Assembly (NCBI GenBank): GCA_963662715.1
Contig: OY759724.1
Location: 2,522,662 to 2,586,661 of the forward strand
From: Candidatus Omnitrophota bacterium
Lineage (GTDB): Bacteria; Omnitrophota; Gorgyraeia; Zapsychrales; JANLHA01
Length of the DNA stretch: 64,000 bases
Direction: 5' to 3'
Below the pieces are notes generated by a model that was not told the origin of the DNA, did not search any database, and saw nothing but the letters and a program-made list of their open reading frames with translations. The position numbers and the translations under genes were made by a program. Numbering within the stretch: position 1 is the stretch's first letter; each line of letters begins with the position of its first letter. Positions 4,837 to 57,025 of this stretch are shown here, piece after piece.

Positions 4837-7800
4837 TTAGCAGGGGCCACAATCATAAGCACAGCTCATACAGTCTTCACCATACTCTGTCTCACAAACG
4901 GAATTGCCGCAGTAAGGACTCGGACAATCATGCTGACAGGTTTGGTGTATTTCCGCTACTTCGCATATGGGAACGCCATATGTCGGATCCGGAACATTAC
5001 ACGTCTCCGTACAATCCGGGCGGCAGGTGTATCCGTCTTCGTAGATCGGGTTCATAGGGTCGTCATTCCACTCGCAGGTGCCGTTGCCGCAGTACGGGCT
5101 CGGGCAATCGTGCTGGCAGGATTCAAACCCTTCGGTTTCCTCGCAGATCGGGACACCTAGCTCCGGATCGGGAACGTTGCAGGTCACGGCGCAGTCCGGG
5201 CGGCAGGTGTATCCGTCTTCGTAGATCGGGTTCATAGGGTCGTCATTCCACTCGCAGGTGCCGTTGCCGCAGTACGGGCTCGGGCAGTCATGCTGGCAGG
5301 ATTCAAACCCTTCGGTTACCTCGCAGATCGGAACGCCCAATTCTGGATCAGGAACGTTGCAGGTCACGGCGCAGTCCGGGCGGCAGGTGTATCCGTCTTC
5401 ATAGATGGGGTTCATAGGGTCGTCATTCCACTCGCAGGTGCCGTTGCCGCAGTACGGGCTCGGGCAATCGTGCTGGCAGGATTCAAACCCTTCGGTTTCC
5501 TCGCAGATCGGGACACCTAGCTCCGGATCGGGAACGTTGCAGGTCACGGCGCAGTCCGGGCGGCAGGTGTATCCGTCTTCGTAGATCGGGTTCATAGGAT
5601 CGTCATTCCACTCGCAGATGCCGTTGCCGCAGTACGGGCTCGGGCAATCATGCTGGCAGGATTCAAACCCTTCGGTTTCCTCACAGATCGGGACACCTAA
5701 CTCCGGATCAGGAACGTTGCAGGTCACGGCGCAGTCCGGGCGGCAGGTGTATCCGTCTTCATAGATCGGGTTCATAGGGTCGTCATTCCACTCGCAGGTG
5801 CCGTTGCCGCAGTACGGGCTCGGGCAATCGTGCTGGCAGGATTCAAACCCTTCGGTCACCTCGCAGATCGGAACGCCCAATTCCGGATCAGGAACGTTGC
5901 AGGTCACGGCGCAGTCCGGGCGGCAGGTGTATCCGTCTTCATAGATCGGGTTCATAGGGTCGTCATTCCACTCGCAGGTGCCGTTGCCGCAGTACGGGCT
6001 CGGGCAATCGTGCTGGCAGGATTCAAACCCTTCGGTCACCTCGCAGATCGGAACGCCTAACTCCGGATCAGGAACGTTGCAGGTCACGGCGCAGTCCGGG
6101 CGGCAGGTGTAACCGTCCTCGTAGATCGGGTTCATAGGATCGTCATTCCACTCGCAGGTGCCGTTGCCGCAGTACGGGCTCGGGCAATCGTGCTGGCAGG
6201 ATTCAAACCCTTCGGTCACCTCGCAGATCGGAACGCCTAACTCCGGATCAGGAACGTTGCAGGTCTCGGCACAGTCCGGCAGACATGTATAAGCGTCCTC
6301 ATAGATCGGATCCATGGGATCGTCGTTCCACTCGCAAACACCGTTACCGCAAGTCGGAATGGGACAATCCTGGGGGCAAATATCATAACCCTCGTCTGCT
6401 TGGCAAATACCGTCCCCGCAATTTGCTGAAGTGCCGGAATCAGCCAGAAAACCAATATCAACCTGCCCGTACATCCTGGAGATGCTGTTGGCTGTCGGAT
6501 ATCCGTTCCCATACCGGTAACACGTTGATTGAATCGAGATGTTGTCATACGTCTGCGGGAAATAATCGATACCGTATCTATAAGAAGCCCCGCTGCCGGC
6601 CATGTAAGCCGCAACAGTGTACGTCTCTCCCTGGGTTACGGGCACAGGGGTGGGGAGGTCGACAAAACTCCATTCATTACTGGCGGTAACCGCCGCGCTG
6701 GCCAGTAAATTCTGTGATGAATCCCAAAGATACACGGTTTTTGTGCCGTTGAAGAAGCCGCCCAACTGGGTTATTTCCCCGTCGACTTCCGGGACGAAAC
6801 GATACCCCATGGTATAATTCCACCTGATATTTGTCCTTAAGGTTCCGTTTTCGTTGGTTTGCCAGGGCGTCTCCGGAATAACCTGCAGGCCGGAAATCGT
6901 CATTTCAGGATCGCCCAAAAGATTCAGTTCAAGAATCGCGTACTTCATGTATTCATTGCTGACGGTCTGTCCGATGAACGGAACTTTTGACATGGCCAGG
7001 GTCTGACCGATGCGGTTTATTTCGTCAACAACGATAGTTTCAAAAAAGGAAGGATCCAGGTAGGTGTCGGATTCCGGGTGCCAGCCATAGCGGCTGTTTC
7101 CGGCTAAAGCAACAGCGCCGCCATCAGGGTTGTTTAACCAGTGTTCGGCAATTGTGTCCGTGTCAATGGCCGCAAAATAGCAGCCCACTGACCATAAGAC
7201 GGAGTAGTCCGGGGCATTGCTGAAACTGTCCACATCTTGAGTTGTGATGTAATCACTGCCGGTATACATGCGGTCAATATCGGCATGATCAATGTGATTG
7301 ATAATGTGATGTCCGGAATTGATTTCCGTTATGGCCTGAGCACTGTAAGCATAAAGGTCTCTTTCGTAAAGTTTCGTGATCGGATCAAATTGCTGCGGCA
7401 TATACTGCGCGTCAATGTAGTCTTTGGTTTGGCCGCCGGCATCCTGAAAGTCTTCGCATCCCAGGAACAGGGCCGTGTTATAAAAGTCGGGATTTTGTCC
7501 CTGAATATAGGTCAGGATTTTACTGACAAAAACCTGGGCTTCCTGCTGATCCTCTACCGGAGCCCGTCCGACAAAAACATCCGGATACAGGTCCAGATTG
7601 TCTTCGTATTCTCCGAAAATGCTGTCCTGATCAGCGTCCCAATCACCGTCTAAATCAGAATAGTACATGTCCGTGGGGATGTAAGAAGATGCGACATAAG
7701 CCGGCCGGACAGGGACAATGTTGACATCTCCGCCCAGCAACACCCAGACAAGACCGTTGTTCGTATAGAGGTCGATGATGAAGTTCCGAATCTTCTCGGC

Positions 7801-8724
7801 TGTGTCACGGCCGGATACGTTTTGCTCTATCCATTCCACAGACTCAATTTCAGCCGTGAGTCCCTGATTTGTTTTTTCATCCAGTAACGGCTGAAAAACC
7901 TGGCTGGTAATAAGGGCTTGACTGGTGATAATGATGTAGTCAACAGTCCCTGAATAGCTACCGGCCAGCAGGATTTCGCCGCTGAGCTCTGCTTCTACGG
8001 CTGAGCGGGAATCCTGCAGAGTCGTATCGACCGCCTCGCTGTTGGTGAACACTTTTTTAAAGGCGTCTTTTAACGCTTTGTCTGATTTGTCGGATATTGT
8101 TTTTCTTTTCCGGTGTTTTATGTCTTTGCTTGATGAGGCGGCGGTGTTTTTGCCGGTTCGCTCTTCTGAACTTAACTTGAATTTAATTTTCTTATGCAGA
8201 ATCAGTTCTTTTTGAGCGGGCAAATATTGTATGGGGTAGACATGGACCGTAACAATATTCACGTCGCTTAAGTTCCCGGATTTTACCTTCTTGATCATTT
8301 CAGCCGGGTAAAGTTCTTGTGATGCATAGGCGTCCTTGTCCGGATTGGTAAAAGAATATTGGCTCCCGTAATGCTGGGATTCCTGCGCCGGATAAAGCAA
8401 AAACTCTCCTTCCAATTTTTCAGTAACATCTTCTAGGATCTCGATGCCTGTCACTTCGATATCATTGGCAACAGCGAACTGGTAAACTTTATACGGGACC
8501 TGCGGTTTCCCCGCCTCTCTCGTTGAAGCATGCCAGTTCGTTTTAATGATATCGTAGCCTTCTTCTGCCGTGATGTTCAGATCACTCTGGGAGAATTCTA
8601 TCTCGTGAATGATATCTTCACTTTGGGCCGCTAATACTGAAATTCGCGCTGAAGAAAACAGTATAGAAAATAACAGCATTTGCATCAGCAGTCCCAGGTG
8701 TTTCTTGCGTCTATACTTATTCAT
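4837..8724 (-). CDS. Secreted gingipain-like cysteine peptidase (MEROPS C25 fold). Its C-terminus is an array of 8 full plus 1 truncated 60-aa Cys-rich modules with 8 Cys each.
   Basis: Signal peptide (…ISVLAAQ). The catalytic region matches gingipain/C25 in two places: INHIDHADIDRMYTGSDY (His) and SVLWSVGCYFAAID…GGAVALAGNSRYGW (Cys). The C-terminal 527 aa are repeats of CPSPYCGNGTCEWNDDPMNPIYEDGYTCRPDCAVTCNVPDPELGVPICEVTEGFESCQHD. Confidence 0.8.
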   Translation of the reverse strand: MNKYRRKKHLGLLMQMLLFSILFSSARISVLAAQSEDIIHEIEFSQSDLNITAEEGYDIIKTNWHASTREAGKPQVPYKVYQFAVANDIEVTGIEILEDVTEKLEGEFLLYPAQESQHYGSQYSFTNPDKDAYASQELYPAEMIKKVKSGNLSDVNIVTVHVYPIQYLPAQKELILHKKIKFKLSSEERTGKNTAASSSKDIKHRKRKTISDKSDKALKDAFKKVFTNSEAVDTTLQDSRSAVEAELSGEILLAGSYSGTVDYIIITSQALITSQVFQPLLDEKTNQGLTAEIESVEWIEQNVSGRDTAEKIRNFIIDLYTNNGLVWVLLGGDVNIVPVRPAYVASSYIPTDMYYSDLDGDWDADQDSIFGEYEDNLDLYPDVFVGRAPVEDQQEAQVFVSKILTYIQGQNPDFYNTALFLGCEDFQDAGGQTKDYIDAQYMPQQFDPITKLYERDLYAYSAQAITEINSGHHIINHIDHADIDRMYTGSDYITTQDVDSFSNAPDYSVLWSVGCYFAAIDTDTIAEHWLNNPDGGAVALAGNSRYGWHPESDTYLDPSFFETIVVDEINRIGQTLAMSKVPFIGQTVSNEYMKYAILELNLLGDPEMTISGLQVIPETPWQTNENGTLRTNIRWNYTMGYRFVPEVDGEITQLGGFFNGTKTVYLWDSSQNLLASAAVTASNEWSFVDLPTPVPVTQGETYTVAAYMAGSGASYRYGIDYFPQTYDNISIQSTCYRYGNGYPTANSISRMYGQVDIGFLADSGTSANCGDGICQADEGYDICPQDCPIPTCGNGVCEWNDDPMDPIYEDAYTCLPDCAETCNVPDPELGVPICEVTEGFESCQHDCPSPYCGNGTCEWNDDPMNPIYEDGYTCRPDCAVTCNVPDPELGVPICEVTEGFESCQHDCPSPYCGNGTCEWNDDPMNPIYEDGYTCRPDCAVTCNVPDPELGVPICEVTEGFESCQHDCPSPYCGNGTCEWNDDPMNPIYEDGYTCRPDCAVTCNVPDPELGVPICEETEGFESCQHDCPSPYCGNGICEWNDDPMNPIYEDGYTCRPDCAVTCNVPDPELGVPICEETEGFESCQHDCPSPYCGNGTCEWNDDPMNPIYEDGYTCRPDCAVTCNVPDPELGVPICEVTEGFESCQHDCPSPYCGNGTCEWNDDPMNPIYEDGYTCRPDCAVTCNVPDPELGVPICEETEGFESCQHDCPSPYCGNGTCEWNDDPMNPIYEDGYTCRPDCTETCNVPDPTYGVPICEVAEIHQTCQHDCPSPYCGNSVCETEYGEDCMSCAYDCGPC
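4930..6290. repeat. Near-identical 180-bp coding tandem repeat, about 7.5 copies, inside the C25 peptidase gene
   Basis: Visible directly. For example the blocks starting near 5041, 5221, 5401, 5581, 5761, 5941 and 6121 differ by only a few nucleotides. Confidence 0.9.
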
Positions 8725-11663: not shown

Positions 11664-12323
11664 ATGAAAAGAGTTGTTTTCTTAAGTGTTTTATTTGTTA
11701 TTTTTACCTGTAGCAACGCCATGGCTTCCGTGATTACTTTTGATGATGTCATCATGGGAGAAACCACGTATAGCTTCGACTCTGATGGAGACAGTATTTA
11801 TGATGTGATTTTTTCAACTTCAGATCCATATGGGTTTAATACGGTCGGGCCGGGAACAAATATGTCGTATATCCTTGAACCTGGATTAGAAGGTTCGACA
11901 GAATACGATCTTAGAGTCGATTTTCTTAACCAAGCGCAAGGTTATCTTAATTTCGGTTTTGCCCTCGATGATTTTTCCGAAACCTCCAACACTTGGACTG
12001 AATTTTGGGTATACGATAACGTTGGCAACCTCTTAGCGCATGATTTTGAATACGGACTATATACGACACCAGATGGTTCTAATCCGAGTGATTTCCCCGA
12101 GGGATTAATCGAGACCAGCTTTTCAGGTATCGCAAGCTATGCGCTTTTTGATTTTAATAATGACGTTTCTGGTGGACAAAGGTATATTATCGATAATTTT
12201 GAAGGTGTTTTCGGGTCAACAGAAGTTCCTCCCGCTAACCCAGTCCCTGAACCTGCAACAATGTTTTTATTGGGATCAGGTTTATTAGGACTTGCAAGAA
12301 AGAGGAAAAAGTCATTACTTTAA
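11664..12323 (+). CDS. PEP-CTERM sorting-domain secreted protein (exosortase substrate)
   Basis: Signal peptide, then at the C-terminus VPEP + hydrophobic helix (ATMFLLGSGLLGLA) + RKRKK, the canonical PEP-CTERM tripartite signal. Confidence 0.8.
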   Translation: MKRVVFLSVLFVIFTCSNAMASVITFDDVIMGETTYSFDSDGDSIYDVIFSTSDPYGFNTVGPGTNMSYILEPGLEGSTEYDLRVDFLNQAQGYLNFGFALDDFSETSNTWTEFWVYDNVGNLLAHDFEYGLYTTPDGSNPSDFPEGLIETSFSGIASYALFDFNNDVSGGQRYIIDNFEGVFGSTEVPPANPVPEPATMFLLGSGLLGLARKRKKSLL

Positions 12324-27526: not shown

Positions 27527-27576
27527 ATCGTTTGTCAATAATAAATTATTGACAAACGATATCACTCTGCTATAAT
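27527..27576 (+). promoter_or_regulatory. Sigma70 promoter (TTGACA 27549-27554, TATAAT 27571-27576) overlapped by a perfect 14-bp inverted repeat, ATCGTTTGTCAATA-N6-TATTGACAAACGAT, at 27527-27560. Probable operator of the downstream XRE repressor.
   Basis: Read directly; arms are exact reverse complements. The -35 hexamer lies inside the right arm. Confidence 0.55.
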
Positions 27577-27613
27577 GCTATTCAGTCTAGATCATAAAAG
27601 AGGAGGATGCATT

Positions 27614-28156
27614 ATGGATAACAGGTCAAAGATTCAAAAATTAAGTAAAATGTTTCACCGCTTTTTTTCTGTGCTTCTCGTTCTGATACCAATCTGCTAT
27701 TTTTTCTATTGGACATTTATTAACTTCTTACCCGAGAGGTTGATTACGGTCAACATGGATGCCAGTCCTTTAATTCCTCACAAAATTTCTTTTCATCTGC
27801 AGATGATAGGAGCCGCAGCATGTTTATTGCCTCTTTCTGCCTTGGTTTTTGGAATTTTGAATTTAAGAAAACTTTTTTCCTATTATCAGGACGGGGTGAT
27901 TTTTTCTGTTGAACAGGTGAAAATTTTTAAGAATATTTCAAAAGCGCTCCTGTTATGGGCTGTTTTATCCATTGTCTATGAATCCATTAAAAGTGTGTTG
28001 TTCTCCTGGGGAAACCCTCCCGGCAGCAGAGTCTTAGAAGTCGGCCTGAATTCAGGGCAAATAACGTCACTTATAATCGGGTTCCTTATGGTCGTTATTG
28101 CCTGGGTTATGGAAGAAGGGAGCGTTTTAGTTGAAGAAAGGGAACTTGTTATTTAA
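27614..28156 (+). CDS. DUF2975-like 4-TM membrane protein, co-operonic with the XRE regulator
   Basis: Four hydrophobic helices. Sits directly upstream of a 70-aa XRE HTH protein (YozG-like pairing). True start is likely the ATG at 27614 after RBS aaagaggagga; the track start at 27575 overlaps the -10 box. Confidence 0.65.
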   Translation: MDNRSKIQKLSKMFHRFFSVLLVLIPICYFFYWTFINFLPERLITVNMDASPLIPHKISFHLQMIGAAACLLPLSALVFGILNLRKLFSYYQDGVIFSVEQVKIFKNISKALLLWAVLSIVYESIKSVLFSWGNPPGSRVLEVGLNSGQITSLIIGFLMVVIAWVMEEGSVLVEERELVI

Positions 28157-28167
28157 CAGGAGATGCT

Positions 28168-28380
28168 ATGGCCATCATAGTTAATTTGGATGTGGTTTTG
28201 GCTCAACGCAAAATGAAATCTGTGGATCTCGCAAGGCTCATCGGAATTACCGAGCAGAATTTGTCTATCCTGAAAACAGGAAAAGCCAAGGCGGTCCGCC
28301 TGACGACGTTAGACGCCATCTGCCGGCATCTTGATTGTCAGCCGGGAGATATCCTTGAATATAGACAGAATGGATCTTAA
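28168..28380 (+). CDS. XRE-family (Cro/C1-type) helix-turn-helix transcriptional regulator, 70 aa
   Basis: …MKSVDLARLIGITEQNLSILKTGKAKAVRLTTLDAICRHLDCQPGDIL… matches the YozG-like short HTH_XRE proteins. Confidence 0.8.
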   Translation: MAIIVNLDVVLAQRKMKSVDLARLIGITEQNLSILKTGKAKAVRLTTLDAICRHLDCQPGDILEYRQNGS

Positions 28381-28470
28381 GCGGCGCAGCCATCCCGGAG
28401 CATTCATCTTATCGCAAAGAATAATGACTTTAAGAGTGTTGAAATTCTCGTTCAAGAGTGACCATGCCAT

Positions 28471-28647
28471 ATGAATGAAAACATGTTGGATCAGCTGAAA
28501 CGGCTCGAAGCGGAACATGACGTGAGGATTTTATATGCGGTAGAATCCGGCAGCCGGGCATGGGGCTTTGCATCACAAGACAGCGATGGAGAAGGTGCCG
28601 GGGAGGGCTTTGTAAATAGAGTTTTTTGTCCACAAGTTAAATTTTGA
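28471..28647 (+). pseudogene. 58-codon remnant of a nucleotidyltransferase gene (MNENMLDQLKRLEAEHDVRILYAVESGSRAWGFASQDSDGEG…)
   Basis: The ILYAVESGSRAWGF.S.DSD motif resembles the N-terminal signature of predicted-nucleotidyltransferase (Nuc-transf-like) proteins, which are normally about 250 aa. Here the frame ends after 58 aa and no RBS is evident. Confidence 0.3.
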
Positions 28648-28760
28648 CTTTTCTATTAGTAAATATATACTAATGATATATCAATTTTTTAAGTTATGGC
28701 GGTAGGCCCTGGCAAGGGCAGAGTTTTGTTTCAATGACCAGCAGATAGAAAGGAGAATGT

Positions 28761-29249
28761 ATGAAGGTATCCAGATTGACGGCAGCAATCATGGTATTGC
28801 TGCTTACCTGCGGTGCGGGGGTTGCCCAGAGTAAAGCCCCGGAAAGTGAAAAAAAGGATCAGGTTTATGCCGAAGTTGTGGTTCAAGGCGTCAACCTGGG
28901 AGACTTTCTGCTTGTCCAGATGCCTTCCGCGGAAACGGAAATCATCGAATATCAGGACGGAGACGATTCACTCTTAAGAAAAAGGCCGGGACGGACCCGT
29001 TACAGTAATCTTATCATCAAAAGATCTATTTCCGATGATAACAGAATCATAGAGTGGTATGATGGTGTCAAGGCCGGTATGGTAGAGAGAAGAACAATCA
29101 CTCTTATTGTAAAAGATGCTCGCGGTCAGGTTGTCGATACACATACCCTGCTGAATGCTTGGCCGGCAGCATGGCAGGGCGGGGTTTTTGAAACAGCTGA
29201 ATTCGTTCTTGAAGATATGGAGAGAGTTGTAGAAGAAGAGGAAGAATAG
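28761..29249 (+). CDS. Afp1/T4 gp19-like contractile-tail tube-family protein with an N-terminal Sec-type signal peptide (orphan)
   Basis: Core YAEVVVQGVNLGDFLLVQMPSAETEIIEYQDG…RPGRTRYSNLIIKRSI…IIEWYDGV…RRTITLIVKDARGQVVDTHTLLNAWPAAWQG…AEFVLEDM aligns motif-by-motif with Afp1/PVC1-type tube proteins. N-terminus MKVSRLTAAIMVLLLTCGAGVAQS is a typical signal peptide. Confidence 0.7.
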   Translation: MKVSRLTAAIMVLLLTCGAGVAQSKAPESEKKDQVYAEVVVQGVNLGDFLLVQMPSAETEIIEYQDGDDSLLRKRPGRTRYSNLIIKRSISDDNRIIEWYDGVKAGMVERRTITLIVKDARGQVVDTHTLLNAWPAAWQGGVFETAEFVLEDMERVVEEEEE

Positions 29250-29612
29250 ATCCGCGTTTGCGAAGGCCGGTGTTTTAACCAGCCGGCCGCAAGGCGGCAG
29301 GAATATTTTTTCCTCCCTGTCCTACTTTGCCCTACTTCGTCATATTGACAGTCATCTGGTCTTCCGATAATATAAAAGGCTATTTTAACATTGCCTTGAT
29401 ATGAAATTTTTTAATGCGCATTTTATCTGTTTCGGGATAAGCAGATAAAAATTTGTTAAGATATTTTTAACTTCTATATTTGTCAGCCATCTTCCCGCCG
29501 TAGCCTGTCATAACTTTGACACTTTTTAATTTTCAACGGTGATAAAATTCACTTGAGAGGGAGATTGTTTGTTAAAAAATTATTGAGCTTAAAAATCAAA
29601 AAAGGAGGAGAC

Positions 29613-30095
29613 ATGAAAAAATCAGTTTTAACAGTACTAATGGCGGGATTTATGGCGATGAGCCTTTCCGGCTGCGCAACCAGGCTTATAGATTTCACCA
29701 TGATTTCTACCAAGAATGTCGATTTCACCAAAGGGGCCAGTTTTAAGCGGGGGAGAGAGCGAGTAGAAGGGATTGATGAAGTTTCTATTATCATTTTTAT
29801 CCCGACCGGTACCCCGAATATTAAAGAAGCGATAGACCGGGCTATTGAAAGCGTCCCCGGAGCTGTTGCTTTAGTCGATGGCGTTGTGACCCAGAAATCC
29901 TGGTATATTCCTTATATTTTCGGCAAGAGCAGTTTTGTTGTTGAAGGAACCCCGCTGATTGATCCGAGTATGGCATCGGTTGAGAGAGAATCGGATTATA
30001 TTGTAAGCAAGATGGATGAATCCGGAGAAGTTGAGGAACTGCGGTATGTCAGTGCGAATGAGTATGCAGCTTTGAAGAAGGACTTGAATTTATAG
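29613..30095 (+). CDS. Hypothetical lipoprotein (lipobox LSGC)
   Basis: RBS aaaaaggagga before the ATG at 29613; signal peptide plus Cys lipobox. The track start at 29553 is less likely. Confidence 0.5.
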   Translation: MKKSVLTVLMAGFMAMSLSGCATRLIDFTMISTKNVDFTKGASFKRGRERVEGIDEVSIIIFIPTGTPNIKEAIDRAIESVPGAVALVDGVVTQKSWYIPYIFGKSSFVVEGTPLIDPSMASVERESDYIVSKMDESGEVEELRYVSANEYAALKKDLNL

Positions 30096-34945: not shown

Positions 34946-36223
34946 TTGCGGAGAGTCGTTATAACAGGCCTTGGGCCGGTGACGTCATCCGGGACGGGTA
35001 AAGAGGATTTCTGGAAAAGTGTCCTGGGGAACAGAATCTGTCTTAAAAATATTCCGGAGAATTTTGAAATAGGGTATAAGTACAGGTCCCGTTATTACAG
35101 CCCGCATCCGGATGCCGATCTTTCAGGATACGGATTCCCGCCGTATTACGGCAAAGTTACCCAGGGGGAAGACAAGCTGGCTTTAATAGCTTCGAGCCTG
35201 GCCTTGAAAGATGCCGGTTTTCAAATAGACAAGGAGGGGAACCGGTTTGTCTTGCCGGAGCTGCGTTCGTGCGGAGTCATCGTGGGGATCGGCATCAGCA
35301 GTCTTGAAAACGGGTTCCATTCTTATCTGGCCCATGTGGCCCGTGACAGGGACGAAATCCCGCAAAGCCTGAACTCTGTCAAGATTCACTATAACCGCAT
35401 GGTTGTGCCCATGCTCATGCCTAATTCGGTTTCAAGCTGGATTTCCATCGCCTATGGATTGAAGGGACCGAGTTACACGGTGAATGCCGCCTGCGCTTCC
35501 GGGATTTTTGCGATAGGGAATGCTTATCAAAGCATCAGAAACGGCACCGAGGACGTTATTTTGACCGGCGGTGTGGAGTGTTTGTCTGACAGTTTCGGCG
35601 GAGTGATGCGCGGTTTTGATGTGTTGGGTGTGCTGACCCAGTCCCCGGACGGAATCCCGTATCCGTTTTCGAAAACAAGTACGGGATTTCTGTTCTCCCA
35701 GGGGGCAGCCTGTATTCTTGTCCTGGAAGAATATCAGCATGCCGTTAAACGCGGGGCCTCTGTTTATGCGGAGATAATAGATTTCCAAAGCAACAGTGAT
35801 GCTTATAACATTGTTCAAATGGACCGTTCGGGCGTTCAGATAAAACGGCTGCTCCACAACCTCAAGCAAGACCGCCGCATTGATTATTTAAATGCTCACG
35901 GCAGCGGCACGCATGTGAACGACAGCATCGAAGCCGAAGCGATCGCTGAAGTTTTTGGCCCTAAAGAGAGGCAGCCGTACATTAATTCTACAAAAGGAAT
36001 CCTCGGCCATACACTTGGCGCAAGCGGAGCCCTGGAGACAGCCGTGACGGCTCTTTCGATCAAAGAATCCCGGGTGCACGGACATCGTGTTCATGACCCC
36101 CGGGAAAATTTGAATTTGGTCGAAGAATCTATAGAGGCCAGCGTGAATGTGGCCATGTCCACATCTTATGGTTTCGGGGGGCATAATGCGGGGGTTCTCT
36201 TGAGCAGACATGACAGGCCTTAG
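34946..36223 (+). CDS. Beta-ketoacyl-ACP synthase (KAS I/II-type condensing enzyme, TTG start)
   Basis: Active-site Cys in VNAACASGIFAIG; catalytic His motifs NAHGSGTHVND and GILGHTLGASGA; thiolase-fold length. Confidence 0.85.
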   Translation: MRRVVITGLGPVTSSGTGKEDFWKSVLGNRICLKNIPENFEIGYKYRSRYYSPHPDADLSGYGFPPYYGKVTQGEDKLALIASSLALKDAGFQIDKEGNRFVLPELRSCGVIVGIGISSLENGFHSYLAHVARDRDEIPQSLNSVKIHYNRMVVPMLMPNSVSSWISIAYGLKGPSYTVNAACASGIFAIGNAYQSIRNGTEDVILTGGVECLSDSFGGVMRGFDVLGVLTQSPDGIPYPFSKTSTGFLFSQGAACILVLEEYQHAVKRGASVYAEIIDFQSNSDAYNIVQMDRSGVQIKRLLHNLKQDRRIDYLNAHGSGTHVNDSIEAEAIAEVFGPKERQPYINSTKGILGHTLGASGALETAVTALSIKESRVHGHRVHDPRENLNLVEESIEASVNVAMSTSYGFGGHNAGVLLSRHDRP

Positions 36224-36306: not shown

Positions 36307-39300
36307 ATGAAAATGTTAAGAAGAAAATATGTGTTATGGCTCTGGACCTTTTTCGTCTTAGCCGGGGTTTGTTCCTCCGTTCATGGCGGGAACAAAAGAC
36401 AGCAGACCTTGGCGGTCCTGGGGATCACTGCGGAACCTGATATCCATCAGTCTGATAATCTGGTGTCTCTCCTTGAGGCCGGGTTGAGCGGGACGGATGA
36501 TTTGACCCTTGTGGAAAGGCGCGAGATTGATCTTGTGATTAAGGAACTGCAGCTTTCCATGGGGGATTTCTTAAGATCGGACCAGAAAATGCAGGCCGGC
36601 AGAATGCTTGGGGCTGATCTGATCGGGTATGGATTCCTGACCCGGCAGAAAACCAGAATCCGTGTCAGGTTTCGTATCGTAGAGGTGGAGACCGGGCGTG
36701 TTGTCGGAAGTTTTCTGCTGGCGGAAAAAGATCCCGAAACAATGTCTCATAAACTTTTAAGCGGTATGATAAAGTCCATAAAGACCGGCCCGGTTAAAAA
36801 TCTCCCCACTTTTACGATAGCCTCTTTTATGAATGACAGTAATTACGACAGGTTTGATGATTTTGAAAAAATCCTGTTTGACAAAGCCTTTGACTTTGTC
36901 GCCGGAACAGGAAATTTTGTATTGCTGGAGAGAGAATCAACGGGGTATTTGCTGGATGAAATTGATATGTTTAAGTCCGGTATCGTCGCTGAAGACCACG
37001 GGGCCAGGCCGGGCCGGGCTTTAAAAGCCGATTATGTGCTTAAAGGTTCTTTTGCCGAAGACCAAAGCACTCGGCAAAACGGACAATGGCTTATGAATGT
37101 TACGGTTGAATTGTGGGACTGCCGACACAGAAGAAGAGTCTGGTCTGAAATTTTTCAGTCGCCCTCTGATAGGCTCGAGCAGGAATTCACGGCCTTTTTA
37201 GAAAAAAACATGTCCCGTGTCCCGCGCGCAATATCCTTCCCTTTTAACCTGCAGCAAAAAGCTGAAAGCAGGGAATATTTAAGGAAAGGCCTGACCAATC
37301 TGTATGTCGGATCGCGGTTGCAGCAGGGGGGCATGTATGATGCTTTGAATATAGAGGATTATTTGATGAAAAGTCATTTTTCCGGAGTGAAAATGGATGT
37401 CCTGGACCGGGATGATCCCCGGGCCTACAGACGCGCCCGGGCCGGGATTAACGACCTTGAGAATGCGCTCTTTTTGGATCCGGACAATACCGTTGCAAAA
37501 CTCTACCTTGGAATGGCTTTGTGTGACTTGTACCGCGGAGATTTAAATCATAAAAGTATAGGGGTTCATGGACGACGGAGGCGTATTCTGACGATGTTGC
37601 GGGGTGCGGAGATGATCGGAAATGTCTTTCCCGCGGATAAGAAGACTTTTTCTACGGCTCTTTTTGAAGCTGTTTCCATTCTTGATTTCAGCCGGCCTCA
37701 TTCCAATCCCGAGATCACCGCAGAGTATGAGGATGCGCTCTATCGACTGGTCAGGCTGGCCTTTGATAATCTCGAGGCGTTTTCCGGGGAAGCGCAAAGA
37801 TTATTGAAAGACCGTTATGAAATCATTCTGACAAGGGGATCACAGCAAGAGCTCATACATTTTACCCGTAAACGCCTCGCAGATATCCATAAAGACAAAG
37901 CGTTCGCCCGCCGTCATCCGGAAACGGCTTTTTATGTTTTTCAGAAGATCGCCGCCATGTGGAGAGAGGAATACCGCATGGACCCGGCCTGCGAAGTCGC
38001 CGGATTCTTTGAGGAGCAGTATGAGTCCGAGAATCCGGTCTATGCCCAGCTTGCGTATTTCTGGACCGCAAAATCATATCAGCGCATGAAAGATTATACG
38101 AAGGCGCGTGATTTTTACCGGAAAGCCCAGGACATATTTTATGCCCGTTTTGCCCAAGAGCCGTTAGAGACTTTTGAGAGTTCTTCGTGGGGAGTTTTGG
38201 AGGAGAGTTTTTTTCAGGAAGCCTACATGCACCTTGAAAACAAAGAATATCAGAAGGCTATCGATGTCCTGGCCCCGTTTATCGAGGGGTGTTTTGAAAG
38301 GAATAGATATCAGGTTTTTGCTTATGATAATGCTTTAAAGCTGCTGGGCAGGGCTTATGAAGAGGAGGGGCTGATCGCCCAAGCCATTGAGTATTATCAG
38401 AAGGTCCTCGATGCCGAATATCCGAAAAATGTCTATGTTGATAAAGCGGCCATATCCTCAAGAATCAATAAACTGAAATTTGCCAGGGGGGACAAGACGG
38501 AAAATGCCGGCTTTGCCCTGTACAAGCTGGCTGATGTCAAAAACGCCAGGGAGATTGTCCGGCAAGGCTCCCAAATCTGGATTTTGAAAATGTCGGCGCT
38601 CTTCCCGGCAGCGGCCTATTCCAGCAGCAGTACGCATAGGGGAACTTACGAAGTATGGCAAGACGGGCCGGGGGGCTGGGTTAAAGCCGATGCCCCGTTA
38701 CTGACAGATTCCCAAAAGATCAGCGTCCTGTTTTTGCATGGGAATAATCTTTGGGTCGGGACTTACGGGGACGGTTTGTTCCGGCAGGACCTGGTGACGA
38801 AAAGAGTCGATTCCTTTACGACCGCATCGGGGTTGCTTTCAGATTATATCGTTTGTCTGGCAAGTTCGGCTCAAGAGCTTTTCATCGGCCTTTCGTCAAA
38901 CAAAATGAACAGTGATCGGGGAGGCGTGTTGCGGTATCATTATGGGAAAAGAATATTCAGTCCTTTCCCGGGGTTGAATTCCCGGGGGGTAAGGACATCC
39001 ATGCCCATGGCCCTGCATTATGATGAGAAGCGGGATGCTCTTTGGGTCGGCTATCCCCGCTGGGAAAAGGCGATCCTGCACAGATATTCCCTGGCGAAAA
39101 AGCAATGGGACGCCTTTATGAGTAAGGCTTACGGGAAGTTTATCTTTCAGATATTGCCTTATCATGACGATTTATTATTCGGCATGGGCGATGAACTGGC
39201 AAGATATAATCTGCCGGAGGATGGCTGGGCCGATATCCGGGGGGGGAGAATCGACGGGTTTAAGAAATATAATATTTTTGAGACCCAGACCTCGCTTTTT

Positions 39301-39507
39301 TATGAAGTTTATGAGAATGTCCTTTTGACCGTAGCCGGGGGAAAAGGATCTCAGTTGCAAATATACAACCTTGAAACAGGAGAAATGAGGACAATGGATA
39401 TTCTCTTCGGGAGGCAGGACACGCACATTACGGCCATTCAGACTGTGGGACAGGAACTGCTGATCGGTACGGATATGGCGGTCTACAAATTAACGATAAG
39501 TGAGTGA
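36307..39507 (+). CDS. Large secreted multidomain protein: N-terminal CsgG/LpoB-like domain, central TPR-like helical repeats, C-terminal beta-propeller-like region
   Basis: Signal peptide. The N-terminal region LAVLGI…LVERREIDLVIKELQLSMGDFL…AGRMLGADLIGYGFL follows the CsgG/LpoB-family pattern. YY…KA…G helical-repeat stretch between roughly 37300 and 38400. WVGT/GDG-type blades at the C-terminus. Confidence 0.5.
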   Translation: MKMLRRKYVLWLWTFFVLAGVCSSVHGGNKRQQTLAVLGITAEPDIHQSDNLVSLLEAGLSGTDDLTLVERREIDLVIKELQLSMGDFLRSDQKMQAGRMLGADLIGYGFLTRQKTRIRVRFRIVEVETGRVVGSFLLAEKDPETMSHKLLSGMIKSIKTGPVKNLPTFTIASFMNDSNYDRFDDFEKILFDKAFDFVAGTGNFVLLERESTGYLLDEIDMFKSGIVAEDHGARPGRALKADYVLKGSFAEDQSTRQNGQWLMNVTVELWDCRHRRRVWSEIFQSPSDRLEQEFTAFLEKNMSRVPRAISFPFNLQQKAESREYLRKGLTNLYVGSRLQQGGMYDALNIEDYLMKSHFSGVKMDVLDRDDPRAYRRARAGINDLENALFLDPDNTVAKLYLGMALCDLYRGDLNHKSIGVHGRRRRILTMLRGAEMIGNVFPADKKTFSTALFEAVSILDFSRPHSNPEITAEYEDALYRLVRLAFDNLEAFSGEAQRLLKDRYEIILTRGSQQELIHFTRKRLADIHKDKAFARRHPETAFYVFQKIAAMWREEYRMDPACEVAGFFEEQYESENPVYAQLAYFWTAKSYQRMKDYTKARDFYRKAQDIFYARFAQEPLETFESSSWGVLEESFFQEAYMHLENKEYQKAIDVLAPFIEGCFERNRYQVFAYDNALKLLGRAYEEEGLIAQAIEYYQKVLDAEYPKNVYVDKAAISSRINKLKFARGDKTENAGFALYKLADVKNAREIVRQGSQIWILKMSALFPAAAYSSSSTHRGTYEVWQDGPGGWVKADAPLLTDSQKISVLFLHGNNLWVGTYGDGLFRQDLVTKRVDSFTTASGLLSDYIVCLASSAQELFIGLSSNKMNSDRGGVLRYHYGKRIFSPFPGLNSRGVRTSMPMALHYDEKRDALWVGYPRWEKAILHRYSLAKKQWDAFMSKAYGKFIFQILPYHDDLLFGMGDELARYNLPEDGWADIRGGRIDGFKKYNIFETQTSLFYEVYENVLLTVAGGKGSQLQIYNLETGEMRTMDILFGRQDTHITAIQTVGQELLIGTDMAVYKLTISE

Positions 39508-52801: not shown

Positions 52802-55800
52802 TTGTTATATAGAGCAAAGGAGTGTGTTTTGTCTTTGGGAAGAATACTCTGTTCCAGAATTTTTAGTTATGTATTAACGATAATAATCACTTTCACCTTT
52901 GTTTTTTACCCTCTGACACCTTCCCGTTATGTTTTTGCCCGGGAAGCGGCCATCCTCGGTTTGCCTGTTCCAGGAACACAGCTCCGGACGTCTGAAAGCT
53001 ATGAGCCGGCTCTTGTCAAAGGCATAACGATATATCCCGACAAGCCTCTGCAATTTAATTTTATTGTTCATCCGGGGGATGACCGGTTGAAGGGTGAGGC
53101 CCTGCAGCAGGAATCTTTAAAGATGATTAAATATTTCCTGGCTACCCTGACTATCCCGAAAGACGAGATGTGGGTCAATTTGTCCCCTTATGAGAAGGAC
53201 CGCATTATTCCTGAAAATCTCGGTATAACGGAAATAGGCCGGGACATGCTGGCGCAGGATTATCTTCTTAAGCAGTTAACCGCTTCCTTAATATATCCGG
53301 AAGAGTCCCTGGGCCGCCGTTTCTGGGACCGCGTCTATAACAAAGTGTATAAGGAATTCGGATTAAAAGAGGTCCCGATCAACACCTTTAATAAAGTCTG
53401 GATCGTCCCGGATAAAGCCGTTGTTTACGAACATGACAATACCGCGTTTGTCATTGACCAGCATTTGAAAGTCATGCTGGAGGAAGATTATCTTGCCTTG
53501 CAGGAAAGCCGGGGTTCGGATGTTTTCCGCAAAAAGAAGATGGATGAAAAAGAGATTTCGGGCATCAACCACGTCTCCTCGGAAATTCTGCGCACCATTA
53601 TTATCCCTGAGATAGAAAAGGAAGTTAACTCAGGCAGAACGTTTGCCGACTTAAGGCAGATCTATAACGCCATGATTCTGGGTATATGGTACAAACAGAC
53701 ACTCAAGAATAGTTTGTTGGCGTCTGTTTATGCCGACCAAAATAAAATTGTCGGCGTGGATGTTGATGATAAGGAGATCAAAGAAAAGATTTACAGACTT
53801 TACATTGAAGCGTACGGGAAAGGGGTCTTCAATTATATCCGTGAAGATACTGATCCCCAGACGCAGGATGTCATCCCGAGAAAATATTTCTCCGGGGGAC
53901 TGGTGGCCCCGGCCCAGGTTACGGTCAAGAACGATTTCGCTCAATTGAATACTGCCGAAAGGCGGAATGTCCGCACGATCGTCAGTTCCCCGATCCAGCA
54001 TCAGGGGATTATTGTCAAAACTTTGGAGCTGAGCCGTCCGGATGCTGAGGCCCGGATTTTAGACATGCTGCGGCAGGCTCTGTTAAAAGATGAGGGGAGA
54101 ACGTTCAGCGTTCTTCAGGACGTGGCCGATTTATTATCCCGGGACGACATGAGGACGATCCCTGATATTCGTGCGGCCCTGGAGCCCTTCAGGGGACGGT
54201 ATTTTTATGACCTGGCCTACGGATATCAGAAAGACAGCCTTGTGCTGGAGCGGGGGGCGGAACTCTGGCTGGTCGTTGATGCGGCCAAGAGAGAAGGGGA
54301 CCGGCTTTACCGGTACATCAAGGCCCGGGACAGTGTTAAGGAAGAAGGCGACAAAGATATCCGTGAGATCATGGATTTCCCGGAGAGTCACTGGCAGATC
54401 GTGCGGGTCCGCAAGGGCGACCTGGAACAGGACAAGCTTATTGATCTGCAGTTGATCGAAGACCATGATTTCCGTGTTATTGACCTGGTGGAAGAAGGGC
54501 GGGATTTAAGAGAAGATGATATCGGGCAGGGTATCGAAGGAGCCAGAGACAGGATTATCGGGGAACTGGATTATCAGGATTATTTGCAGTCGTTTGTGTC
54601 GAGATTGCAGGGAAAAACGATAATGGACGAGAGCGGCCGGACCATCCCGTTATTTGTGAATGAAAAAATCCGGACCGGGGAAGATTTATTAACGGCTTTT
54701 GAACAGGCCCGTCCTTTTCTCGATCAGTTCGATGAGAGCGACCCTATGGAGGATGTGTATGCGCGTTTGCGGGATGTAGGCCTGGAACGCGGCTGGGGAG
54801 ACACGCTGTCCGAAATGAAGACGAGGCTGGATTTGCTGCTGGAATCCGCCGGGGCTGCAGATTCCGTGAGCAGAAAAAGCCTTTTAATGGAACTGGATGA
54901 CCTGACCCCCACAGCGTTATCAGCCGTCTTTGTGAGTACCCATGGATGGTTTGTCCAGGAAAATGCTTTCGGGAAACCCGATACGGGCGGTCAGGTGAGT
55001 TTTGTGCGGGACGAAGCCAAAGCCATGGCTAAAGAGATCGCCGGTAAGATGGAAAGAGCCGGGATTCCCGGTAAAGCTGTCGCCCTGATATTCACGCGCC
55101 TGATTCCCAAAGCCGAGGACACGACCGCCGATCTTCCGGAGGAGTCGGTCTACGAGGATGACCGTCAGGTCGTTAAACTGGTCCGGGTGCCTTTTGAGGA
55201 TCAGGAGCGGTCCGGGGAGGTCAGGGGCCGTCCGCAACCTAAAAATATTCTGGAAGTCATTCAGGCTTTTATCCGGCGGTTTGAAATATGGTCGTATATT
55301 ACTCAGGAAGAATTTATTAATACGGCCGGAGCCAGGATAACAGAGGTGATGAACAGGTACGGGCAGGAGGGGCCGGATATTATTATGGGGAATTATTCCG
55401 ACGGGAACCTGCTGGCGGGCAAATTGTCGGACTATTATGGCGGGAACGTCCCGGTTGTCATGACAGCCCATGCCCTGGAATTGAGCAAATATTTTAAAAG
55501 CATGCTGGAAAACGGCCGCCTGATCGATAACTGGTTTGAGACGGAAGACGGCCGTTATTTGGCGGCCCAGGCTTTGATCGATGCCTGGGTGATGCGTAAG
55601 GCCGATATTATCGAGACGAGCACGTTGCTGGAAATACTCGGCCAGTATTCCTATTATGAATCATTTGAATTTGAAAATCTTTTCCGGGTGGATAACGGGA
55701 TTAAACTTACGGACGGAAAGTTTGTCCTGAATGAACCCAGCGTTGACCAGCGGACAGTAACAAACCCGGACGGGCTGTTCTTCGCCTATGAAGGGCCTGA

Positions 55801-57025
55801 TGATGTCCGCCGGCAGGAGTTTGCCGATGCCAATGCTCTCTGGCAGGCCAAGATTTTTGCTGCTCCTGATGGCAAAAATAAAGTCTACGACCGGTTCGCT
55901 GACTGGAAAGATTCATCCAAACCGGTTGTTTTCACGATGGCGCGTTTTGATTCCCGGAAAAATATTGCGGGCCTGGTTGAGGAGTTCGCTAAAGCGGGCC
56001 TTAAAGACAGGGCCAATCTGGTGATCGTCGGCGGCAACACGGATTATATTATCGACGGAGACGGCAAGGTCGTCTTTAAAAGCCAGGACGGGTCTGACGA
56101 CATGAACGCCGAGGAACTCGCTATCGCGGAAAAGATTCTTGCCTTAGTGGAGCAATACGGTTTAGACGGACACATCCGCTGGATTTCGGCCAGTACTATT
56201 GCCCGTGAATCGGCTGAATTGTACCGGGTTATGGAAGCCCATCCCCAGGGGGCGATTTTCGCCCAGCCGGCTATTTTTGAGGCTTTTGGTTTAACAATTC
56301 TGGAAGCTATGGTCACAAAACTTATGGTTGTGGCTACGGATCAGGGAGGCCCGGCAGAGATCATCCGCCATCACCAGGACGGTTTTCTGGCCAATCCTGA
56401 AATCCCGGGAGAGTTCGGGGAACGGTTGGGGGAAGCTTTGGATGCCCTGGCCAACGCTGAACAGAAACAGGCGATTATCCATTCTGCCCTGGAACGGATC
56501 GCCAGTAAATACAGCTGGCGCAGGCGGGTGCAGAGAACCTTGCAGGCGACGAAATTGTTTTCCACGCTTAATGATGTTGACCGGAATCAGCGTCCGGACC
56601 ACTGGCAGGCCCGGAAACAATCCCAGGAGAAGGTTTACCGGGATATCCTGGATATGATTGACAATCTGGTGTGGGTTCATAAACTGGACCTTATTCCGCC
56701 GGAAGCACAGCCGGAAATGGAAAACCTGATCGGTGAGCAATTCAGAACGGGGGCGGAAGCCGTTTCAAGCCCGCTGGCTCAGGACGCCGAGACAGATGCC
56801 GGGTCTTATTACGGCGGTATCGATTTGAATTCAGATATGCTGGACCTGCAGATCAAACGTGACGGCCGGGGCGTGGCCCTGCCGCTTCCTCAGCAGCCGA
56901 TTCAGAATATGACAATCCAGGGATTCATGCCGATCATCATTGATGTTGTCCCGGTGAATGTTCCCTTGTTGTTAGGGACCTTGGAAAGCTCCTCTGATAA
57001 TATGCCGTCCGATGACGAAACATAG
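52802..57025 (+). CDS. 1407-aa sucrose-synthase-like glycosyltransferase (GT4, GT-B fold) with a roughly 400-aa N-terminal membrane-anchored extension of unknown function and a roughly 100-aa C-terminal tail
   Basis: Central and C-terminal regions match sucrose-synthase hallmarks in order. (a) GLERGWGDT…RLDLLLE (SuS [10 protein letters not shown]…LLDLLEAP). (b) [34 protein letters not shown] (SuS [33 protein letters not shown]). (c) [22 protein letters not shown]…ANLVIVGG (SuS [22 protein letters not shown]…). (d) [36 protein letters not shown] (SuS [36 protein letters not shown]). The N-terminus carries a hydrophobic helix ([19 protein letters not shown]). Confidence 0.75.
   Translation: [1407 protein letters not shown]

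Follow-up and report, generated by a model that had tools for sequence, protein, structure and literature searches.

A solitary tail-tube-like protein with a predicted Sec signal peptide in a Candidatus Omnitrophota genome

We have analyzed a 64-kb stretch of DNA from a Candidatus Omnitrophota bacterium (hereafter, the window), focusing on a single gene at 28761–29249 on the + strand that encodes a homologue of the tail-tube proteins of contractile injection systems (CIS). On balance, we consider this to be a tube-fold protein that is exported to the cell envelope or surface and works there without a contractile machine, being a Cis1-type homologue that has acquired a Sec signal. The protein has the homology and the fold of a tube subunit and an N-terminus laid out as a signal peptide, the window holds no machine genes, and the same architecture and solo context recur among its relatives. 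A preliminary description of this DNA had likewise taken the gene to be a lone one, encoding a homologue with the tube fold and an export signal that is not part of an injection machine; this core reading is supported here and extends to many relatives, and the coordinates, strand, and translation of its open reading frame (ORF) were reproduced exactly. The parts of the gene referred to below are as follows, with residue numbers counted from the initiator Met.

28761–29249, + strand: coding sequence of the predicted exported CIS-tube-like protein, 162 amino acids plus stop, from ORF translation
28761–28832, + strand: predicted Sec signal peptide MKVSRLTAAIMVLLLTCGAGVAQS, residues 1–24, from hydropathy and the −3/−1 rule
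28809–28811, + strand: alternative lipidation site Cys17, a weak, noncanonical lipobox
28833–28865, + strand: charged linker KAPESEKKDQV, residues 25–35, from alignment and low predicted local distance difference test (pLDDT) values
28866–29228, + strand: tail-tube fold domain, residues 36–156, from the Pfam match (residues 39–144), DSSP, Foldseek, and column conservation
29232–29246, + strand: acidic C-terminal tail EEEEE, residues 158–162, from translation

The protein matches the Pfam family PF06841 (Phage_T4_gp19) with E=1e-19 and 71.1 bits, above the cut-off of 28.2, and TIGR02241 with 65.7 bits, above the cut-off of 62.4, and it falls below the cut-offs of the equivalog families for both the CIS1 inner tube (NF053769, 49.7 bits against 220) and the CIS5 tube adaptor (NF053770, 44.5 bits against 260). 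Judged by these scores, it is a member of the PF06841/TIGR02241 superfamily and not an equivalog of Cis1 or Cis5. Its sequence matches in the PDB include the AlgoCIS tube (7adz, 8e-12), Anabaena All3324, Pvc1, and Afp1. An AlphaFold2 model built from a 56-sequence input has a mean pLDDT of 82.4, with low confidence (pLDDT ~53) over residues 1–30 alone, and its fold domain comprises eight strands and one helix (DSSP on the model). When this model was compared with the PDB by Foldseek, each of the top 50 matches, all at probability 1.0, was to Hcp or to a tube protein of a CIS or phage, with TM-scores of 0.61–0.65 when normalized on the full length including the signal, and the best matches were to Cis1- and Cis5-type chains. 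The conserved hairpin ETEIIEYQDGDDSLLRKRPGRTRYSN occupies residues 58–83 of the fold domain, and the family-invariant residues G77, W99, and P135 are all present. The tube-family homology of the preliminary description, and the Pfam check that it proposed, are thus both borne out.

Comparison with known systems places these matches in context. With Cis1 (Afp1, Pvc1, AlgoCIS Alg1, and Anabaena All3324) the protein shares fold and family, a domain of ~125–140 amino acids, the hairpin EYxDG...RKxPG, and the W/P core residues, at 28–32% identity to the solved tubes and 41–45% to myxobacterial Cis1 over the domain. It differs from Cis1 in carrying a Sec-type signal and charged linker in place of the conserved N-terminal arm PNRRxFDHIGNFNF of canonical tubes, which is missing, in its equivalog score, in the lack of adjoining sheath or baseplate genes, in lacking a short stretch ahead of the last strand, and in its EEEEE tail; charged tails are also found in some exported relatives (e.g., P0008, P0061, and P0043). 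The fold match to Cis5 (Afp5, Pvc5) equals that to Cis1, with chains of the PVC baseplate complex at Foldseek ranks 2–3 (9qgl_5A and 6j0n_n, the latter being Pvc5 according to the PDB sequence search) and the Afp baseplate (6rao_F) at rank 4, but the identity is 13–16%, the equivalog cut-off is far from reached, and there is no baseplate context. The tubes of T4 (gp19, after which the Pfam family is named) and other myophages have the fold in common (5w5f, E=5e-5), but there are no phage genes nearby, and the motif-by-motif alignment that had been proposed with Afp1, Pvc1, and T4 gp19 stands by sequence for the first two and for gp19 at the level of the fold only (~12% identity to 5w5f). Because neither PHROG (E<=1e-3) nor a tblastn search against 50,697 phage records (E<=1e-5) gave any match, the gene does not have the appearance of one for a phage tail tube. 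Hcp of type VI secretion systems (T6SS) has a distantly related tube fold (6bdc, 8gra, and 3eaa), but there is no sequence-level match, and Hcp is exported by the T6SS itself and not by Sec. Hcp forms hexameric rings unaided, and it is thus plausible that a solo tube protein could do likewise.

The N-terminus has, by rule applied to the sequence, the n-, h-, and c-region layout of a Sec signal peptide for signal peptidase I (SPase I), and export of the protein is predicted by this rule. The n-region MKVSR has two positive charges and no twin-arginine motif, the h-region LTAAIMVLLLT reaches a mean hydropathy of up to 2.55 over 11 residues, and in the c-region CGAGVAQS, which precedes Lys25, positions −3 and −1 are Ala and Ser. 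No start codon drops the signal yet keeps the fold, with M11 lying in the hydrophobic core, M54 within the fold domain, and no ribosome-binding site in front of the GTG at V40, such that both the predicted Sec signal peptide and the lack of an internal start in the preliminary description hold. Cys17 lies at the end of the hydrophobic core; however, we favor cleavage by SPase I after Ser24 over lipidation of Cys17, because LLLT↓C, with Thr at −1, fails the PROSITE PS51257 lipobox rule ([LIVMFWSTAG]2-[LIVMFYSTAGCQ]-[AGS]-C). In the relative P0002, the Cys aligned with Cys17 stands in a lipobox that conforms to PROSITE (AMLS↓C).

The gene is also solitary in its surroundings. Profiles for the machine genes (sheath, Cis7 as CIS_tube plus LysM, spike, and the protein at the Cis6 position) were built from real operons of extracellular contractile injection systems (eCIS), and found nothing in the six-frame translation of the whole window, even at E<=10. 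A Pfam scan of 40 window ORFs similarly found no sheath, Cis7, or spike, in agreement with the earlier claim that machine genes are lacking here, and a single gp19-like ORF is present in the window. The operon context expected of CIS1, in which its gene accompanies those for sheath, Cis5/Cis7, spike, and baseplate, does not occur in the window.

When 1.84 billion cluster representatives were searched exhaustively with HMMER, 1304 relatives were returned at a cut-off of E<=1e-3, and the family counts given here cover 151 sequences, that is, the best 150 of these 1304 relatives and the window protein. A word-indexed search returned the window protein itself only, a metagenome scan with the window protein gave no close relative (the best match being 38% identical), and genome-contig and profile searches gave mainly canonical myxobacterial eCIS tubes, which were taken as controls. 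The closest relative is P0002, a protein of 158 amino acids with 49% identity, encoded on a 1-kb contig. Signal-like hydrophobic N-termini are found in 100 of the 151 sequences, comprising 90 SPase-I-like signals, nine canonical lipoboxes, and the window protein with its Thr at −1; P0222 has the lipobox LA↓C. In some relatives, the canonical tube N-terminus follows immediately on the signal, as in MKFKYKLLIALVMLGLVSGIAAFA↓PNRRSFDHIGQYNF (...GIAAFA↓PNRRSFDHIGQYNF), and signal-bearing forms are present in Spirochaetota, Planctomycetia, and archaeal contigs.

The signal-bearing proteins do not appear to share a single origin. In a neighbor-joining tree, which is star-like, signal-bearing and signal-less proteins are interspersed, and when identity is compared over the domain only (124 columns, with the signal left out), the window protein is closest to P0002 (58%) and then to signal-less Cis1-type tubes of eCIS (41–45%), with a mean identity of 33% to the other signal-bearing proteins. 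Nearest neighbors are of the same signal class in a fraction of 0.77, compared to 0.51 in permutations, indicating nonrandom clustering. These data fit repeated acquisition of signals by tube genes, or fast later divergence, and not one exported lineage. We therefore reject a distinct exported clade, the existence of which the preliminary description had proposed to test, both on the mixed, star-like tree and on the canonical tubes that are the nearest domain neighbors, with the window protein lying closer to signal-less eCIS tubes than to most exported proteins.

Domain architectures among the relatives provide further insight. Tandem two-domain forms with a signal occur in five relatives (P0005, P0009, P0011, P0057, and P0077), and would be analogous to the gp27/VgrG hubs in having two tube domains per chain; a trimer of tandem tube domains of the gp27/VgrG type makes a pseudo-hexamer. 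The window protein differs from these hubs in being single-domain and in lacking spike or OB domains. Fusions with an N-terminal "FTYQGRL" region are found in P0003, P0006, P0007, and P0093, a collagen-repeat fusion is encoded at locus L088, and both P0020 and P0049 combine a signal, DUF5667, gp19, and a Kazal protease-inhibitor domain. Modules of the Kazal and collagen types are usually found in extracytoplasmic proteins, and their presence in relatives supports a location of the tube domain outside the cytoplasm. Adjacent paralogue pairs occur at L087, L088, and L112.

We also observed giant signal-bearing proteins without whole tube domains (P0004, 5355 amino acids; P0015, 5053 amino acids; P0148; and P0138), which instead contain repeats of ~20–35 amino acids of the hairpin motif EYQDGDDxxLRKRPGRTKYSNITLKRG. 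In such proteins, the hairpin used in tube assembly seems to have turned into a repeat that stands by itself. P0004 and P0015 start with an "LKxxGIxGES" motif, which we take to be Hcp-like.

To place the architecture in its genomic context, we compared 12 recovered signal-bearing loci (11 of them distinct) with 12 control loci that encode signal-less homologues. A sheath or Cis7 homologue is present at none of the signal-bearing loci, as compared to 11 of the 12 controls, and in the controls L002 and L102 the sheath, CIS_tube plus LysM, and spike genes were confirmed by Pfam. One signal-bearing locus has a faint VgrG-like match ~9.4 kb away, at the locus edge. The signal-bearing loci include a Spirochaetota metagenome-assembled genome (MAG; L007), a Planctomycetia MAG with a weaker signal call (L003), a contig named Thermoplasmatota by NCBI (L084/85), an archaeal contig with an archaeal/eukaryotic-type uS15 N-domain and FtsZ (L088), and seven others. 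At L088 (1552–2994), a first gene (307 amino acids) encodes a signal, collagen triple-helix repeats, and a gp19 domain, and the adjacent second gene (169 amino acids) encodes a signal and a canonical tube; a 1544-amino-acid secreted protein is encoded near this pair, and the locus has no CIS genes. The neighbors of the exported genes differ across all 11 contexts, and the lipoprotein encoded downstream of our gene has no similarity to the product of the gene downstream of P0012; a conserved partner gene was rejected on these grounds. The P0002 gene itself (L141, 540–1016) lies 222 nt beyond the 3′ end of a transfer-messenger RNA (tmRNA) gene (L141, 1–317; Rfam RF00023, 137.7 bits), and this context is unlike that of the window gene. 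A separate observation is that a caspase-like Peptidase_C14 gene lies <5 kb from an exported tube-like gene at two unrelated loci (L081/L082, 6383–8641, and L086, 11824–13398), which, given the small number of loci, may be coincidence.

The signals flanking the gene in the window are listed below.

28644–28671, + strand: candidate sigma-70-like promoter, TTGACT, 16-nt spacer, TATACT, from a consensus match only
28706–28719, + strand: short GC hairpin GCCCTGGCAAGGGC followed by AGAGTTTTGT, a short T-run, from a terminator-like scan
28751–28756, + strand: ribosome-binding site AGGAGA (core GGAG at 28752–28755), 4 nt 5′ of the ATG, from the sequence
29286–29311, + strand: weak, putative terminator-like element GCCGC-AAG-GCGGC with a T-run 7 nt on, identified by eye

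The promoter candidate matches 10 of 12 consensus positions, lies ~90 nt 5′ of the start codon, and begins at the 3′ end of a truncated ORF (ending at 28647) that encodes a fragment of RlaP. Between it and the ribosome-binding site, the GC hairpin could be either a terminator of the upstream genes or a 5′-leader element. The element downstream of the gene was missed by the terminator-like scan, the T-run being too distant from the stem, and Rfam gave no match in 28300–29700. The GC content of the gene (47%, compared to 45.6% for the window) is typical of the region.

Conservation within the family suggests what the exported forms may have retained. In a comparison of sequences picked by similarity to the window protein, conservation is highest in the hairpin ETEIIEYQDGDD..LRKRPGRTRYSN, which exported forms conserve at least as well as canonical ones, whereas the columns relaxed in exported forms include F49, G89, L96, W97, R110, L143, and A145. 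Many of the relaxed columns fall in the loop and helix at residues 89–97, which, from tube structures, we take to face the sheath. Both this conservation pattern and the tandem forms suggest that subunit–subunit assembly has been kept, and sheath contact lost, in the exported forms. Export as a monomer, as the preliminary description had it, is not supported, given that the assembly hairpin is the best-conserved part of the protein and that tandem two-domain forms exist.

Taking these observations together, we infer the export, cleavage site, oligomeric state, and cellular role of the protein along the following lines. The gene would be transcribed from its own promoter, the Sec translocon would carry the unfolded chain out, and signal peptidase I would cut after AQS24 (or, less likely, a lipid would be attached to Cys17), after which the tube-fold domain of ~138 amino acids would fold at the cell surface or within the periplasm. 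The cell is expected to be diderm, as the window encodes TonB–ExbBD and a TonB-dependent receptor. Once outside, the domain could self-associate into rings or short stacks that serve as a structural or binding module of the envelope or surface, and we have modest confidence that this is the most likely mode. Self-association is suggested by the conserved linking hairpin, by the tandem pairs, and by fusions to trimerizing or extracellular modules. Contractile tubes, as in T4, PVC, and Afp, are built up from a baseplate, along with tape measure and sheath, inside the cytoplasm, and an exported subunit could thus not join a contractile machine.

Several points weigh against an exported protein that works apart from any machine. 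The absence of machine genes holds for the window, and a CIS locus elsewhere in the genome is possible; the export call follows from sequence rules; the conservation comparison is biased by the similarity-based choice of its sequences; and neither a conserved partner gene nor a phenotype indicates a role. Furthermore, there is one close relative only (P0002, at 49% identity and on a 1-kb contig), and selection on the lineage of the window protein is therefore not measurable.

How the protein would be held in the envelope is itself open to a second answer, which is a variant of the explanation that we prefer and not exclusive of it. Here, signal peptidase II would cut before Cys17, leaving the domain on a linker of ~19 residues at the inner or outer membrane. 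The position of Cys17, which closes the hydrophobic core, the conforming lipobox at the aligned Cys of P0002, and the canonical lipoboxes in nine other relatives, as well as that of P0222, all make such an anchor conceivable, but the Thr at −1 does not conform to PS51257, seven residues further on there is a good SPase I site (AQS↓K), and a lipobox is missing from 90 of the 100 signal-bearing sequences, such that we regard lipidation as a tentative option for this protein. A defensive function is a good deal less probable: in this case, the protein would be an exported decoy or shield, a tube mimic that caps or misengages incoming phage tails, tailocins, or CIS tubes. This would make use of the retained assembly hairpin and of a predicted site outside the cytoplasm, where incoming tubes arrive, and tmRNA genes are classic sites of island insertion, P0002 being encoded 222 nt downstream of one. 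However, PADLOC gave no match for the window protein and only weak, nonspecific matches for its neighbors, there are no defense genes in the window, no association with defense islands is conserved across the 11 contexts, and we found no precedent in the literature.

Two further readings would deny the protein a role in the envelope altogether. That the gene is decaying after the loss of an eCIS or prophage tail to which it once belonged, with a chance hydrophobic N-terminus and no present function, would agree with its being an orphan with one close relative, and with the truncated RlaP ORF immediately upstream, which points to local gene decay. Nevertheless, the ORF is intact across the whole fold, it has a strong ribosome-binding site and a promoter-like site, the invariant G77, W99, and P135 are retained, and its GC content is typical; a chance N-terminus, moreover, does not explain why the signal-plus-domain layout recurs in about 100 divergent cluster representatives, and we consider decay very unlikely. 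We give the least weight of all to a reading in which another part of the 3.36-Mb genome encodes a CIS and this protein is its true tube subunit, with an N-terminus that is not used for export or that targets a membrane-attached CIS. The machine-gene search covered the 64 kb of the window, and after P0002 the nearest relatives of the domain are real eCIS Cis1 proteins (41–45%), as such a reading would have it; on the other hand, canonical Cis1 genes adjoin a sheath gene in 11 of the 12 control loci and lack a hydrophobic N-terminus, the score on the CIS1 equivalog is 49.7 bits against the required 220, the conserved N-terminal arm has been lost, and a Sec signal would take the protein out of the cytoplasm, where tubes are assembled.

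With respect to the wider neighborhood, the upstream genes encode two FKBP isomerases, a DUF2582 winged-helix protein, IF-1, DUF2975, HTH_26/XRE, and the N-terminal fragment of an RlaP nucleotidyltransferase, and downstream, after a 364-nt gap, there is a lipoprotein without a Pfam family, its lipobox being LSG↓C (MKKSVLTVLMAGFMAMSLSG↓C) and its true start at about 29613, followed by ModA and ModB. The DUF2975/XRE pair and RlaP fragment upstream and the lipoprotein downstream are the neighbors that the preliminary description had named. The first of these (27575–28380, + strand) is a DUF2975 membrane protein followed, 12 nt on, by a 70-amino-acid HTH_26/XRE regulator, in an apparent two-gene module for which we found no link to the tube-like gene. 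The RlaP fragment (28471–28647, + strand) is a 58-amino-acid ORF that covers only profile positions 1–39 of 249 (PF10127). No signature of an insertion was found at this locus: the remainder of RlaP was not found downstream and no flanking direct or inverted repeats stood out.

The remainder of the window is housekeeping in character, with a TonB-dependent receptor, ExbB/ExbD/TonB, a phosphate-type ABC transporter, MerR, CarD, MatE, FabF, a methyl-accepting chemotaxis protein, an MscS channel, and a C25 peptidase, and no tRNA or tmRNA genes were found in it. The best named relatives of FabF (34946–36223, + strand) are 70–78% identical and come from Candidatus Omnitrophota MAGs, in agreement with the assignment of the window to that phylum. 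The C25 peptidase (4837–8724, − strand) is a gingipain-like Peptidase_C25 protein of 1294 amino acids with a propeptide and a DUF4082 domain, and there is also a 219-amino-acid PEP-CTERM protein (11664–12323, + strand); both are signs of an elaborate surface proteome. Other large proteins are one of 1407 amino acids (52802–57025, + strand), with a sucrose-synthase-like GT-B domain confined to its C-terminal half, and one of 1066 amino acids (36307–39507, + strand), with TPR repeats and weak CsgG-like similarity.

To our knowledge, tail-tube proteins are known only as cytoplasm-assembled parts of phage tails, tailocins, eCIS, and the T6SS. Full-text literature searches found no published description of gp19-like proteins bearing a Sec signal. 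The abundant extracellular gp19-domain protein of the Accumulibacter secretome (PMC12019908) was rejected as a precedent, being annotated as lacking a signal peptide. Tentatively, and with clearly less assurance than for the window protein itself, we propose that exported, sometimes lipidated tube homologues may constitute a widespread and repeatedly arisen class in bacteria (Omnitrophota among them) and archaea, making rings, tubes, or fiber tips outside the cytoplasm without sheath or baseplate, with the 33-amino-acid hairpin also used as a repeat in giant surface proteins. If this is true, the tube fold has found a second use apart from contractile machines, and an exapted phage-tail part would have given rise to a new envelope or surface structure, or to an anti-tail decoy. 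A lone PF06841 match in genome or metagenome surveys would then not signal a CIS or prophage. Poorly studied lineages may, in addition, possess a new family of envelope or surface proteins that self-assemble.

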